Part shown: positions 29,660 through 34,283 of the stretch, one piece after another
Layout: each line of letters starts with the position of its first letter
Position numbering within the stretch: position 1 is the stretch's first letter
IMG/VR virus record: IMGVR_UViG_2529293142_000029
Location: 1 to 48,979 of that record
Origin: a virus
Lineage: Duplodnaviria > Heunggongvirae > Uroviricota > Caudoviricetes
Reading direction: 5' to 3' (one strand)
Length of the DNA: 48,979 nt
Notes under the pieces: generated by a model
Database searches by the model: none
Told to the model about the DNA's origin: nothing
Seen by the model: only the letters and a program-made list of their open reading frames with translations
Position numbers and translations under genes: made by a program

Positions 29660-29946
29660 GACTTAATCTTCCCCTCCCTCAGCAGTATCGCCTGCGTTCT
29701 GATCACGCCTTCGAGGTGGTAAAGTCTGGCGTCTTTGTTGTCGAGATTATGGGTGCGTCGGTCGATTTCATCGTGACACGCGCTACAAGCCCATGCGCCG
29801 ATCAGGTCGTCAGGCTTCATTCCAGTTCCGCAAATTCCAGCCATCCGGTAATGTGCCAGAACTGTAGTTTCAGGATTGCCATTGCATACGCCGTAAATAC
29901 GTACCTGACATTCTCTGCCGCGCGCTTCTTTGCGTAGGTTAGCCAT
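29656..29946 (-). CDS. DUF1364-family protein (YbcO-like putative nuclease)
   Basis: 96 aa with Cys/His motif (CQVRIYGVCNG...CSACHDEID); immediately upstream of rusA as in DLP12-type nin regions. Confidence 0.55.
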   Translation of the reverse strand: MANLRKEARGRECQVRIYGVCNGNPETTVLAHYRMAGICGTGMKPDDLIGAWACSACHDEIDRRTHNLDNKDARLYHLEGVIRTQAILLREGKIKS

Positions 29947-30674
29947 TAAGCAGCCTCCCCTGTTACTTTCAGCATTCCGTTATCGAGCAGCTTTCTGGTC
30001 AGCCACTGTTGACCACGCCCGGTTATTTTTGTGGTGAACGATATCTGTATTCCGTGATTTGTGTTGACCGCTGTTTCTTTCACTGTGAAATAGCCGCGAT
30101 CCATATATTCCTGCATTGGCACATTTCGCCGGGAACCTGAAGCAATAAGGATTTTGTGATCGCGCATCCACGCAAACAGTTTGTTTGGACCAATACCAAC
30201 AACTTTTGCAAAGTTTCCAATCAAAATTCCGCTGGCCTCGCCAACGCGATCGGCAAAATCAACTTTAGGTGCTGCGAGAGCAAGCTGTTTCTCCAGTTCA
30301 GCCTTCTGGTCTTCAAGGTCAGCCGCGAGGCGCAATGCTTCAGAGAAGGTTTGTGGGATTTTCGCGGTTGCCCCTTCGAGTTCTCGCCAGCGGTCAACAA
30401 GGCGAGCGGTGAACTCTGGCGACAACTGGGCGACGACAATGATACTATCGCGCTTACCTTGTTCGCCTTCGAATATATACACGCTTGTGAATTTGTTAGG
30501 GCTAATTGTTTGTTTATTTTCAACTTTTTGCATTGGAGGAAGTTGAATCACCCCACGCTTTGCCAGACGTTCTATTGATATTCTGACATTACCGTGTTGG
30601 CTTCCCACCAACTCAGCGATTTCAATGCTTGTCATTTTGATGGCATTGTTATTTATCAGCTCATTCATTGTCAT
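29946..30674 (-). CDS. Antirepressor with Rha-like N-terminal domain and KilAC-like C-terminal domain
   Basis: N-terminal TSIEIAELVGSQHGNVRISIERL resembles Rha domain; C-terminal region resembles KilAC. Confidence 0.55.
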   Translation of the reverse strand: MTMNELINNNAIKMTSIEIAELVGSQHGNVRISIERLAKRGVIQLPPMQKVENKQTISPNKFTSVYIFEGEQGKRDSIIVVAQLSPEFTARLVDRWRELEGATAKIPQTFSEALRLAADLEDQKAELEKQLALAAPKVDFADRVGEASGILIGNFAKVVGIGPNKLFAWMRDHKILIASGSRRNVPMQEYMDRGYFTVKETAVNTNHGIQISFTTKITGRGQQWLTRKLLDNGMLKVTGEAA

Positions 30675-30701
30675 GTCCTCTCACATTGAAAATTCAGCAA
30701 T

Positions 30702-30726
30702 AAAAAACCCAGCCGAAGCTGGGTTT
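30702..30726 (-). terminator. Rho-independent terminator, same sequence as the 8960-8984 element
   Basis: AAAAAACCCAGCCGAAGCTGGGTTT read directly; between the ORF6N-like and Rha/KilAC genes. Confidence 0.55.
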
Positions 30727-30742
30727 GTTAAGTTGTCAATTG

Positions 30743-31423
30743 TCAGTAGCGATGCAGTGAAGGCGGCAACTCTTTGTTATTAAGCCTTTCCCATGCCAGA
30801 AGGTTCGTCGGCCCGTCAGGCTCATAAATATCTATATCCCGCGTGTGATTAATTAAAACGCCCCTCGCCCTCCCGATGATATACGAGAACTCATAGCCGT
30901 AGTCGTGGCATATGCCGGAATAGCCAGACTGAATCAGTTTTAATGCGGGATACAACTCACGGAACAATGCCTGTGAGCGGTTGGCATAATCCCACAGCCA
31001 TACAAGGATGTCTGTTTCTTTTGCGGAAAGCCCGTTGGGCTTCTTCTCTTGTTTGCCAGTATTTTTCTCGCACTGGCTGAAATAGCAGTCTTCCAGTTTT
31101 TCGAACACATCCCACGCCTGATCGGTTTCGAGCATTTTTGCATGACGGGCTGCTCCGCGTTCTGTCCAGAGGATAAGGGAGCGGGCTTTGGGAGATATGG
31201 GGTTTTGTGACTTACTTAAAGTAAGTCGCAAATTTTTTAATTCCTCACCAGATGCTTTAAAAAAGTGCTTTCCTTCGACAAAACGCTCTTTGTTTCTGGT
31301 GAAGTTAACCTGGATGTTCAGAATTTCTGTGCCATAAAGCTGCGCCAAAAGTTCGGTGGTAATAACAGGAATCTGGTTATGGGTGATCGGGGAGAGAGTT
31401 TCAACAGAGATTTGAGTTGTCAT
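30743..31423 (-). CDS. ORF6N-domain-like phage protein (putative antirepressor/regulatory)
   Basis: N-terminal [14 protein letters not shown]...[23 protein letters not shown] resembles ORF6N-type domains. Confidence 0.45.
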
Positions 31424-31586: not shown

Positions 31587-31608
31587 AAAAAACACGCTCG
31601 CGGCGTGT
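31587..31608 (-). terminator. Candidate rho-independent terminator
   Basis: Plus-strand A6 then ACACGC-TCG-GCGTGT hairpin, giving hairpin plus U6 on the minus strand. Confidence 0.4.
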
Positions 31609-31700: not shown

Positions 31701-31883
31701 TCACCTTGTATTCCTCGCACGATGTCTTAGCCACCGGATATCCCACAGGTGAGCCGTGTAATTGAAGGTTTTTACGTCAGATTCTTTTGGGATTGGCTTG
31801 CGTTTATTTCTGGAGCGTTTCGTTGGAAGGTATTTGCAGTTTTCGCAGATTATGTCGGTGATACTTCGTCGCTGTCGCCTCAT
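31701..31883 (-). CDS. Small basic hypothetical protein (60 aa)
   Basis: ORF whose start overlaps the stop of the PAPS-reductase-like gene. Confidence 0.3.
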
Positions 31884-32725
31884 GCCGCATCCTCAAAATT
31901 AAATCCAAGCTGACATGAAAATGCTTCACATGATTCAGAACACGAACCTGAATCATACTGTCGCATTGATGTCATTCTTGAGGCTAACTCATCTCTTGAT
32001 ATATCACTAAACAAGGCAATCAGTGATTTAAGTGTATTATTCCCTCGATACATAACCGGTTCCTTTCCTGTTTTTATTTCTGTATCAAGGATGTTGATAA
32101 ATGCATCTGCAAGTTCTGGCTCATCCATGGCTGCCAGCGCCACCTTTTGCATACTTTTTTTTATGCAGAAAACACAATTACCAAGATGCTCCTGTATGCC
32201 AAGATCAAACTTCTGCTCACTCCACCAATCAAGCACATCCTGTTTTTCAAAATCGCTTATATCAGCCAGGTACCGAAAACCATTAGCCCTTTTAAGCCTG
32301 TTTGGTTCATCTGTGCGAATGCCAAGCCATGTGATGTAATTTCCTTTCCCAAACTTTTCCTGACAATATTTGGTGAATGGAACAGACTTCATTCTGTCGG
32401 TACAGAACGCACCGCCGATATATGGATGTCCGTATTTATTCAACATCCTTTTCCACGGTATAAGATCTGGACCAATATCAGTGACACCTATCTCTTCATA
32501 ACTACTGGCCTTCCCCATTTCTGGATTAGGTATTACACGAAGGCAATGTAAGTCTATTTTCCAGTTACTGACGATATTTCGAATGAACTCATATGTTTTA
32601 GGGTGCTCTGCTCCTGTATCCATGAAAACGTAATGCACGTCTTCACCTGCCCGTCGCTTTTGCTCCATTAGCCAGAGCAAATATGCTGACGTCCTGCCAC
32701 CTGAGAAACTAACGACATTAATCAT
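31880..32725 (-). CDS. Phosphoadenosine-phosphosulfate reductase-family protein (PP-loop ATP pyrophosphatase fold)
   Basis: PP-loop motif SFSGGRTS near N-terminus; start set at internal ATG 32725 (AGGAGGG SD), overlapping Dam stop as ATGA. Confidence 0.7.
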
Positions 32726-33252
32726 GCTGCCCTCCTGACGCCCTGCCCGATCGCCATCAATGCCGCTTTGGATACGGTAGTAAACATCCGTCGAGGACTG
32801 ATGAACGGTCGCCAAATCAGCAGCATGGAACCTTTGCTGTTTCCCTTCTTCTCCAGCCCTGTCGATGGTTCGATAAAATTAATCCGTCCATCAGTAATGA
32901 TGCGAACTTCGTCAACACTCTCCAGAGCCTTGCTGAACCATCCGACAGACATATCCTCTGGCACAAGCATCACTACCGTCTGTCGCTGTTGTATGCACTG
33001 CTCAGCGGCTTTTTCCACCCACGGCCTGATATTGCTGTACGGTGGGTTATTCCAGATTGCACCGTGGCTTATCCACTCAGAATTTAGCGCGTCGTCGGCC
33101 TCAGTTAACCAGTGAGCGCACAGAGCATTTTTGTCGCTCGCTGCCGAATCCAGCCAGAATCCAAACTCAATATCCAGTGCATCAAAAAGCCAAAGCGGCG
33201 TTTGCCAGCAGTCTCTAACTTCTTTTGGTGTTTCTGATTTATGCTTAATCAT
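32722..33252 (-). CDS. Phage-type DNA N6-adenine methyltransferase (Dam-like)
   Basis: 176 aa with NPPY catalytic motif and WQTPLWLFDALD N-terminal motif. Confidence 0.8.
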   Translation of the reverse strand: MIKHKSETPKEVRDCWQTPLWLFDALDIEFGFWLDSAASDKNALCAHWLTEADDALNSEWISHGAIWNNPPYSNIRPWVEKAAEQCIQQRQTVVMLVPEDMSVGWFSKALESVDEVRIITDGRINFIEPSTGLEKKGNSKGSMLLIWRPFISPRRMFTTVSKAALMAIGQGVRRAA

Positions 33253-33774
33253 TCAACCCTCGCATATTGTCCGTGATATTTGTTGATAGCCTCACTGGCA
33301 ACCAAACCAGCAAGCTCAAGATCTTCATAGAACCCAAAATGCAACCGGCCAAAATCTGTGCGCACTTGAACGGCCCATTTATTTTTTGCTTGTTCCATAA
33401 AACATTTTTATTCCAGAACGGCTATTGCACTTAGTTTTCTGATTTCGGCTGTTTGCTATCCGGCTTGCCTCCCTAAGATTTTTTGGGGAATTGTCCAGCC
33501 TGTTTCCGTTAATATGGTCAATATTTTTCAATGGCATTCTTTTGTTGTGCAGCGCAAAAACAACTACGTGAACAAACATCTGAATGCCTGCAAAACACAC
33601 CTGTCTATACCCAGATCCATTTATCGATGTTTTAATTTCATCTCCGGCCCGGTGGCTGTGGTTGGGGTGTTTTAGCGAGTCCTTTTTGTATCTGACTGTA
33701 TCTCCGTCTAAATACAGATAATCCTCAATAACCCGATACCTATCTGACGCTGGCGTATTTGATTTGATAGTCAT
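33249..33774 (-). CDS. HNH homing-type endonuclease with C-terminal AP2-like DNA-binding domain; frame break near plus-strand T run 33382-33387
   Basis: HNH motif IDHINGNRLDNSPKNLREA; downstream 49-codon frame KWAVQVRTDFGRLHFGFYEDLELAGLVASEAINKYHG resembles AP2; the two frames join with a 1-nt change in the A run. Confidence 0.55.
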
Positions 33775-34210
33775 GCAGCCCGGTCTCCCCATCTCGCTTT
33801 CCACTCCAGAGCCAGTCGCGCTTCGTCTGACCACTTAACGCCACGCTCTGTACCGAATGCCTGTATAAGCTCTAATAGCTCCGCAAATTCGCCTACACGC
33901 ATCCTGCTGGTTGACTGGCCTATTACCACAAAGCCATTCCCGGCAAGGTTAGGAACAACGTCCTGCTGCTTTAATGCTGCGGTAAACACACACTTCCAGC
34001 TTTCTGCATCCAGCCAGCGACCATGCCATTCAACCTGACGAGAGACGTCACCAAGGCAAGCCCAAAGCTTTCGGTTTGGTCTAAGCTGCGGTTGCGTTCC
34101 TGAATGGTTACTACGATTGGTTTGGTTGGGTCTGGAAGAATTTGCTGTACCGCGTGAATAGCGTTTTGCTGATGTGCTGGAGATCGAATTTCAAAGGTTA
34201 GTTTTTTCAT
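33771..34210 (-). CDS. ninB: NinB (recombination mediator); frame break near 34075-34077
   Basis: MKKLTFEIRSPAHQQNAIHAVQQILPDPTKPIVVTIQERNRSLDQ and ...FTAALKQQDVVPNLAGNGFVVIGQSTSRMRVGEFAELLELIQAFGTERGVKWSDEARLALEWKARWGDRAA match recalled lambda NinB; the middle is out of frame at an A3 run. Confidence 0.85.
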
Positions 34211-34283
34211 GACTTCCCTCTCCCCCAAATAAAAAGGCCTGCGATTACCAGCAGGCCTGTTATTAGCTCAGTGATGTAGATGG

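Follow-up and report, generated by a model that had tools for sequence, protein, structure and literature searches.

A Dam methyltransferase and a NinC-like PP-loop protein in the nin region of a lambdoid Escherichia coli prophage: recurrent fusions and a possible joint role on phage DNA

The window analyzed here is the whole 48,979-nt stretch of the Caudoviricetes record IMGVR_UViG_2529293142_000029, and this work deals with two adjacent genes in it, encoding a phage N6-adenine DNA methyltransferase (Dam) and a PP-loop protein related to NinC of phage lambda. They belong to a set of genes all located on the minus strand, in the order tR2-like terminator, ninB, HNH endonuclease, Dam, NinC-like PP-loop protein, ninE and terminator-like hairpin. 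Here the nin (delayed-early) operon of a lambdoid prophage of E. coli begins, and the closest relatives of the region are lambdoid phages of E. coli, Shigella and Salmonella. The tR2-like intrinsic terminator found in a terminator scan upstream of ninB (34235-34258, minus strand) has a stem of 8 bp, 6 of them G-C, and then TTTTATTT; phage O276 has tR2 annotated at the matching position, and the N-antiterminated delayed-early nin operon starts with this element. It is followed by ninB (33771-34210; Pfam NinB), which encodes an Orf-family recombination mediator and is frameshifted in the window, a free-standing HNH_3 homing-type endonuclease gene that is split (33249-33774), the intact dam gene (32722-33252), the NinC-family gene (31880-32725) and ninE (31701-31883; Pfam NinE, 2.1e-43). 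A hairpin with a T-run at 31592-31608, on the same strand and downstream of ninE, was also found in the terminator scan and closes the ninB-to-ninE unit. Genes for a DnaB-type helicase and a replication protein precede the nin region, while two antirepressor-type genes, a DUF1364 gene and rusA lie downstream of ninE.

The PP-loop protein has 281 residues when read from the ATG at 32725, which is preceded at 6 nt by AGGAGG. A first-pass annotation of this DNA had described it as PAPS (phosphoadenosine phosphosulfate)-reductase-like, which holds (Pfam PAPS_reduct, 1.7e-8), with a length of 282 residues, which does not. It had overlooked that the protein is, by homology and by its slot between ninB and ninE, identifiable as the orthologue of lambda NinC, the product of a long-known non-essential gene. 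The identity to NinC of the lambda-like phage O276 (annotated as 'Lambda gp NinC') is 57% over 99% of the length, and the protein matches PHROG 33262 (1e-112; it spans positions 1-278 of the 495 in the profile) and PHROG 424 (2.2e-73). All the features conserved in the NinC family are present: the SxSGGRTS PP-loop, MDTGxEHPxTY, C108, GNC184xxC187xKK and a C-terminal CxESCE. In alignments A2 and A3, with relatives down to around 30% identity, the PP-loop, Cys108, Cys184-x-x-Cys187 and Cys266 are invariant and Cys262 is nearly so. An AlphaFold (AF2) model was obtained with a mean predicted local distance difference test (pLDDT) value of 89.7, falling below 50 in the tail (residues 255-281), so that disorder is predicted for the GSCSESCE end with its CSESC dyad.

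Curated models separate the CysH-, DndC- and QueC-like possibilities and place the protein in none of the three. Scores with the CysH equivalogs were 18.5 bits for PRK02090 (cutoff 154), 12.9 for TIGR02057 (cutoff 254) and 16.7 for TIGR02055 (cutoff 235), and the DndC equivalog TIGR03183 gave 11.7 bits (cutoff 290), with ninB, Dam and ninE as neighbours in place of dndD/dndE. Membership of the sulfate assimilation, DndC and TilS families was thus discarded, the models being all far below cutoff, and so was QueC (7-cyano-7-deazaguanine synthase), with no match among the Pfam and NCBIfam hits at E values up to 1. The first-pass view that the enzyme stands outside sulfate assimilation is borne out by these figures. 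That the gene is an auxiliary metabolic one serving assimilatory sulfate reduction, i.e. that it encodes a CysH-like PAPS or adenosine phosphosulfate (APS) reductase, would agree with the Pfam name, with the PHROG category ('auxiliary metabolic gene') and with the fold comparison, in which the best solved structures were the APS/PAPS reductases 2goy, 6vpu and 1sur (TM-scores 0.36-0.54), followed by LarE, TtuA, NAD synthetase and GMP synthase; a search of PDB sequences with the single protein gave marginal CysH matches as well. CysH does share with NinC the fold class, the DTG..P.TY motif and a flexible cysteine-bearing C-terminal tail. However, the alignment places SSSFGIQA in CysH where NinC has SFSGGRTS, so that CysH is without the SGGxxS ATP-pyrophosphatase loop, and the C-terminal half, the tail and the genomic context also differ. 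The catalytic cysteine of CysH is found in a C-terminal ECGLH-type motif, different from the NinC tail. Considering in addition the fusions of NinC to DNA methyltransferases described below and the location of the gene within an early phage operon devoted to DNA transactions, a role in sulfate assimilation is extremely improbable.

Homologues of NinC are common in phages, prophages and plasmids. The identical protein represents 435 database sequences, and 2184 database clusters were retrieved at E<=1e-5, together with 539 phage records. Alleles with 54-55% identity are located on 84-99 kb plasmids of E. coli and Salmonella, beside ead/Ea22-like genes (for example L087, E. coli, 96 kb), and NinC-like genes with around 30% identity are present in 137 Acinetobacter plasmid records, mostly of conjugative plasmids, and are followed at 1.2 kb by an 'N-6 DNA methylase'; the conjugative A. 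baumannii plasmid NZ_CP017647.1 (L088) has two, at 3483-4256 and 5497-6273. The family thus extends beyond phages. Other architectures were also seen: P0096 and P0065 share a conserved C-terminal extension of around 120 residues that is not a methyltransferase (GKF...SPYDY...GGGV...W.W.EIDK; columns about 400-551 of A2), and in P0266 a NinC fragment is joined to a domain with metallo-beta-lactamase fold.

The identity of the Dam methyltransferase proposed in the first-pass annotation was confirmed, with 1.1e-65 and 220.9 bits for Pfam PF05869 (cutoff 28.1) and 262.2 bits for NCBIfam TIGR01712, phage_N6A_met (cutoff 97). The protein has 176 residues, and its NPPY motif reads WNNPPYS. Characterised members of PF05869 methylate GATC, and the specificity of the window Dam is assumed from these. 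A search for a solved structure of a PF05869 Dam found none. Some stand-alone Dam genes in RefSeq and GenBank phage records, such as those of phage cdtI (NC_009514.1, H213) and phage Kati (PP925833.1, H215), are labelled 'phosphoadenosine phosphosulfate reductase'. The label is presumably carried over from fused PAPS::Dam proteins and constitutes an annotation trap for this family.

The association between both proteins was evaluated in 80 IMG/VR loci with NinC-like genes of 53-100% identity. In 20 of them NinC and Dam form a single NinC::Dam polypeptide, and in three others NinC is fused to a (D/N)PPY domain. Dam is located immediately upstream of NinC, as in the window, at nine loci, immediately downstream at one, and 1.2 kb from NinC at another; it is absent within 5 kb of NinC at 46. 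Where there is a link, Dam is fused to NinC or less than 300 bp away (33 of 34 loci) and not scattered over 10 kb, and the link is present in 15 of the 27 clusters formed by these loci at 90% identity. Among representatives at 50% identity, the order NinC::Dam is found in P0121, P0127 and P0148, and Dam::NinC, which is the gene order of the window, in P0122 and P0126, the former within a prophage. P0124 is a fusion of NinC to MethyltransfD12, an adenine methyltransferase family unrelated to Dam PF05869. The fusions retain the PP-loop and the GNCxxCxKK motif, and most of them also the CxESCE tail and an NPPY-type motif. They represent separate, independent events, covering either domain order and two methyltransferase families that are unrelated to each other. 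The connection of the PP-loop enzyme with an adenine methyltransferase, which the first-pass annotation had suggested from the coupling of the two genes, is real: NinC is fused to Dam in both orders and also to a D12-class enzyme.

In two loci whose NinC is 86% identical to that of the window (L021, 4893-6391, and L029), a separate Dam gene is located immediately downstream, with an overlap of around 13 nt; the separate genes, like the fusions, are therefore juxtaposed in both orders.

Part of this picture is already known, namely the genes themselves and, for one fused Vibrio protein, the link between PAPS reductase and Dam and an anti-Dnd phenotype. In the searchable literature we did not find it recognised that this protein is of the lambda NinC family, nor how widely the fusions range, in either order, with methyltransferases of two families and with a split counterpart in prophages of E. 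coli. The Vibrio protein is p0018, a PAPS-reductase::Dam fusion of 479 residues from the V. crassostreae podovirus 44E38.1. The window NinC-like protein aligns with residues 1-278 of p0018 (62% identity, E 4e-122) and the window Dam with residues 301-478 (38% identity, E 3e-32), so that together they tile the whole of it. Transfer of p0018 and p0019 into a sensitive sister phage allowed it to escape from the Dnd system of the host (Piel et al., bioRxiv 10.1101/2021.05.05.442762). This transfer is cited in a 2026 survey as the sole functional evidence for phage PAPS reductases, and a further paper states that phage PAPS-reductase proteins 'deserve further investigation'. As in p0018, a NinC-type PAPS_reduct protein and a PF05869 Dam are encoded together in the window, here as adjacent genes with a 4-nt overlap; unlike p0018, there are two ORFs (open reading frames), Dam is first, with its stop codon at 32724-32722, and the phage is a temperate one of E. 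coli. The other Vibrio gene, p0019 (L092, 1911-2501), carries DUF6475, and no counterpart was seen next to the Dam/NinC pair of the window. A match in Vibrio phage 99E28-4b (37% identity) was discarded as a fusion; it is a stand-alone homologue of 346 residues.

With these data, it is probable that the Dam-NinC pair acts jointly on DNA. We lean towards an interpretation in which phage DNA, during lytic replication, is the common target of Dam and the NinC-like protein, which would protect it from phosphorothioate-based or related defences such as Dnd. Taken separately, a role in protection against phosphorothioate-type defences is plausible but somewhat doubtful, and DNA sulfur modification as the chemistry is a tentative and rather unlikely option. 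We infer that the split E. coli pair acts like p0018, on DNA, and by a chemistry in which sulfur takes part.

The first-pass annotation had considered the HNH, Dam and PP-loop genes as one system, with the ATGA overlaps between them as an argument. The three overlaps are present, at 33774-33771 (ninB/HNH), 33252-33249 (between the AP2-like piece of the HNH gene and Dam) and 32725-32722 (Dam/PP-loop), and there is a fourth, absent from that list, at 31883-31880 (PP-loop/ninE). Nevertheless, when junctions between ORFs of at least 45 codons were counted across the whole window, around 30 ATGA overlaps were obtained, versus 3.2 in shuffled sequences, and lambda-type nin genes are packed with the same coupling. 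Such coupling being genome-wide, it is therefore no evidence for a dedicated three-gene block, and the overlaps were rejected as module evidence: they are real but generic, the ordinary gene packing of the nin operon.

The distribution of the HNH gene leads in the same direction. The gene matches PHROG 99 ('HNH endonuclease'), and its HNH piece matches Pfam HNH_3 (PF13392) with 2.7e-11 (5.2e-10 for the intact homologue of E. coli S51); PADLOC gave a weak 'homing endonuclease' match. The HNH half of the first-pass label HNH-AP2 can thus be kept, while for AP2 there was no Pfam match at E values up to 1, neither in the 49-residue C-terminal piece nor in the intact 175-residue S51 homologue, and the label reflects a resemblance by eye (KWAVQV...LGxF...E.A). 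The gene is present in 34 of 5426 E. coli genomes, always exactly at the ninB/dam junction, and relatives in five other loci (L012, L013, L052, L069 and L072) occupy other nin positions, downstream of ninE. This pattern identifies it as a selfish, site-specific homing-endonuclease insertion at the ninB/dam junction, outside the Dam-NinC module. A three-gene system in which the HNH nuclease was one arm and Dam, with or without NinC, the protective arm, like a small restriction-modification or homing-protection cassette, would explain why HNH is exactly between ninB and dam in the 34 genomes that carry it and why the ATGA overlaps on both of its sides are seamless. However, around 98% of the genomes with this dam are without HNH (34 versus 1674), its relatives are at other nin positions, the gene has two frameshifts here and PADLOC points, if weakly, to homing. 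HNH as a functional partner of Dam was rejected on these grounds and we regard a three-gene system as very unlikely; HNH is independently mobile, and the grouping of the three genes as one system is not borne out. Of the DNA-modification or anti-restriction role proposed in the first-pass annotation, what stands is the Dam-NinC pair, through the recurrent fusions and the homology to p0018, while HNH as a member and the overlap argument do not.

The segment between ninB and ninE is a place where mobile cassettes have piled up, and the orders ninB-Dam-ninE, ninB-Dam-NinC-ninE, ninB-HNH-Dam-ninE and ninB-NinC-ninE were all found. The common form is ninB-Dam-ninE, present in hundreds of phages and in around 1650 E. 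coli genomes without this NinC, and the full order ninB-HNH-Dam-NinC was found in a single complete E. coli genome, that of strain S51. Dam, NinC and HNH occur independently in relatives, and the block is therefore a mosaic. This makes it necessary to consider that the cassettes are unrelated and met by coincidence in the nin hot spot, with NinC acting alone on tRNA, on a small molecule, or on DNA without Dam. Several facts weigh against a joint action of the pair and in favor of such a coincidence. Of 5426 E. coli genomes, 18 have the Dam-NinC junction, compared with 1674 that have the Dam allele of the window; in Salmonella phage SE16, a NinC of 99.3% identity follows ninB immediately and Dam is missing; lambda carries NinC without a methyltransferase; and the 46 of 80 surveyed loci without Dam within 5 kb have already been mentioned. 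Both genes are in a known insertion hot spot, so that their adjacency in E. coli, taken alone, could be coincidence. Every cassette combination exists, the four-gene order is limited to one complete E. coli genome, the ATGA overlaps are generic, and tRNA thiolases appear among the fold matches, as do LarE, NAD synthetase and GMP synthase, which act on small molecules. Coincidence alone would not account, however, for independent fusions of NinC to methyltransferases in both orders and with two unrelated families, with the catalytic motifs retained, nor for the position of Dam, which is fused or less than 300 bp away in 33 of its 34 loci. We therefore consider mosaic coincidence fairly unlikely, although it is the alternative to be taken most seriously.

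The proposed joint action on phage DNA would proceed as follows. Transcription would start from pR and, after N-mediated read-through of tR2, reach these genes while phage DNA replicates, a timing based on the lambda paradigm and on the presence of the tR2-like terminator upstream of ninB; the location of the operon between terminator-like sites and downstream of replication genes fits with expression during phage DNA replication. Dam would have two roles, methylating adenine and providing the recognition of DNA and sequence. The NinC-like enzyme, with its intact SGGxxS PP-loop, would spend ATP to adenylate the target and then transfer sulfur. Sulfur transfer is most probably the reaction of this enzyme, given the ATP-pyrophosphatase loop, the three-cysteine site and the mobile C-terminal Cys-x3-Cys tail. 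The three-cysteine site resembles that of the Fe-S PP-loop sulfurtransferases TtuA, LarE and DndC (for DndC features, see PMC10853773). In the end, phage DNA would carry a modification that weakens phosphorothioate-based immunity such as Dnd.

Support for this scheme comes also from defence proteins. In PADLOC, the N-terminal half of the NinC-like protein matched SspD (2.8e-14; profile positions 3-122 of 277), BrxP (7.6e-8; positions 136-256 of 779) and DndC (5.7e-4), which are the PP-loop subunits responsible for DNA phosphorothioation in the Ssp, BREX type 4 and Dnd systems, respectively, and which have, like NinC, a true PP-loop, conserved cysteines and a similar N-terminal nucleotide-binding half. 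BrxP is fused to a DUF4007 DNA-recognition module and SspD works with SspB/C (PMC12839542). Since these defence relatives pair this class of PP-loop enzyme with a DNA-recognition module, the methyltransferase is probably the recognition module of the phage pair. The NinC-like gene is phage-encoded, whereas the genes of SspD, BrxP and DndC belong to defence islands. No SspB/SspC or DUF4007 partners were found in the window region, and neither DndD/E nor cysteine desulfurase neighbours were seen beside the NinC-like gene.

The same likeness would also be expected if NinC were a non- or semi-catalytic decoy of DndC or SspD that poisons or sequesters Dnd/Ssp components of the host or its IscS sulfur supply. 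The resemblance of the N-terminal half to SspD, BrxP and DndC, and the fact that the anti-Dnd phenotype of the fused homologue came without an identified modification, would agree with it. Against it, relatives down to around 30% identity show little or no variation in the PP-loop, the Cys triad and the tail cysteines, as would be expected of an active enzyme, the fusion to a methyltransferase with an intact catalytic motif points to DNA, and DndFGH restriction would not stop from a blocked modification arm alone. A decoy is, in our opinion, improbable.

Returning to the proposed DNA modification by Dam and NinC, some other points argue against it or against parts of it. The Vibrio transfer moved p0018 and p0019 jointly, so the domains were not separated, and no modification was identified (bioRxiv 10.1101/2021.05.05.442762). 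The Fe-S site and the sulfur chemistry are deduced from cysteine conservation only. The likeness to SspD and DndC is confined to the N-terminal nucleotide-binding half, around 140 residues, and the NinC locus has no DndD/E or SspB/C partner. In the literature, no report was found of an unusual modification in lambda DNA.

The sole solved phage relative of NinC that was found is PptA, from Vibrio phage vB_VhaP_VH-5 (PDB 21fy, chain C), which was brought in by a profile search. The hhalign probability with the NinC family was 97.5% over 196 columns, with around 22% identity; C..TxxLK and NCxxCxK are shared, while the loop of PptA, SCGAPS, is degenerate compared to SGGRTS in NinC. In this T7-like phage, the PptA gene (L091, 3743-4495) directly follows the gene for RNA polymerase, and no paper describing its function was found in the literature search.

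Two of the genes of this region are interrupted in the window. In ninB, both ORF pieces match Pfam NinB (profile positions 2-48 and 74-131), and the gene has 440 nt versus 441 nt in the lambda type, with a 1-nt gap near 34076 against relatives. Against the lambda sequence, this deletion would be a change from T4 to T3. The HNH gene consists of a 131-residue HNH piece (33774-33379) and a 49-residue C-terminal piece (33398-33249). Compared to the intact 528-bp gene of E. coli S51, it has an A6 run reduced to A5 and, 22 nt on, an A7 run reduced to A6, so that the single HNH-AP2 gene of the first-pass annotation does not have an intact reading frame here. Among the records listed for the 34 complete E. 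coli genomes with the gene, 24 of 25 have the undeleted length. Over the window, single-base deletions versus close relatives are located at 33386, 33409, 34076, 36014, 37592, 37885 and 37906, the last four in runs that are now G5, A6, A5 and T5, respectively; six of the seven are in homopolymer runs (A7 to A6, A6 to A5, G6 to G5, T6 to T5). The pattern probably corresponds to homopolymer under-calling in the assembly, rather than to gene decay or true pseudogenes. The Dam and PP-loop genes show no gaps versus a 99% identical relative (L007). Several ORFs of structural genes elsewhere in the window are apparently split too (for example 6270-7055/6955-7944, 14808-16403/16292-16873 and 23547-24191/23969-25072).

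On the other side of ninE, the two antirepressor-type genes are on the minus strand (29946-31423), one with ORF6N and P22_AR_C (30743-31423) and the other of Rha/KilAC ANT type (29946-30674). The pair lies between ninE and DUF1364/rusA, an arrangement that is alike in E. coli S51, and represents another moron cluster in the nin region.

With respect to lambda itself, its NinC (Orf290) has in common with the protein of the window the nin slot after ninB and before ninE, the ATGA coupling, the PP-loop, the Cys triad and the CSESC tail. Lambda differs in having ninD after ninC and no phage Dam, and the allele of the window is closer to those of Vibrio (62%) and Salmonella (99%) phages than to that of lambda (57%). 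The literature on lambda NinC yields only that it is annotated in the PAPS-reductase family (PMC10695390), that it is non-essential (PMC10695390, PMC3224144) and that no interactions were found. A more specific proposal, which we put forward as a speculative and in its entirety rather unlikely one, is that NinC could be the catalytic half of a two-component phage DNA-modification system, in which an adenine methyltransferase would target a PP-loop/Fe-S enzyme that installs a phosphorothioate or thio-base without DndDE or SspBC, camouflaging the DNA from phosphorothioate-based immunity. For lambda, the host Dam would possibly be the targeting methyltransferase.

The split pair described here is 62% and 38% identical to the only relative that has been experimentally implicated. 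NinC is among the last lambda genes without a function, and its recurrent fusions to methyltransferases make it directly testable in E. coli, with standard lambda genetics, whether NinC together with phage or host Dam modifies DNA and overcomes Dnd, Ssp or BREX type 4. If the modification hypothesis fails, the window represents a typical mosaic nin region. If it is true, it would bring to light a small enzyme that modifies DNA and an anti-defence strategy of wide occurrence; in the more specific form proposed above, lambda ninC would be given a function at last, after decades, and a minimal machine for DNA thiolation would be defined.

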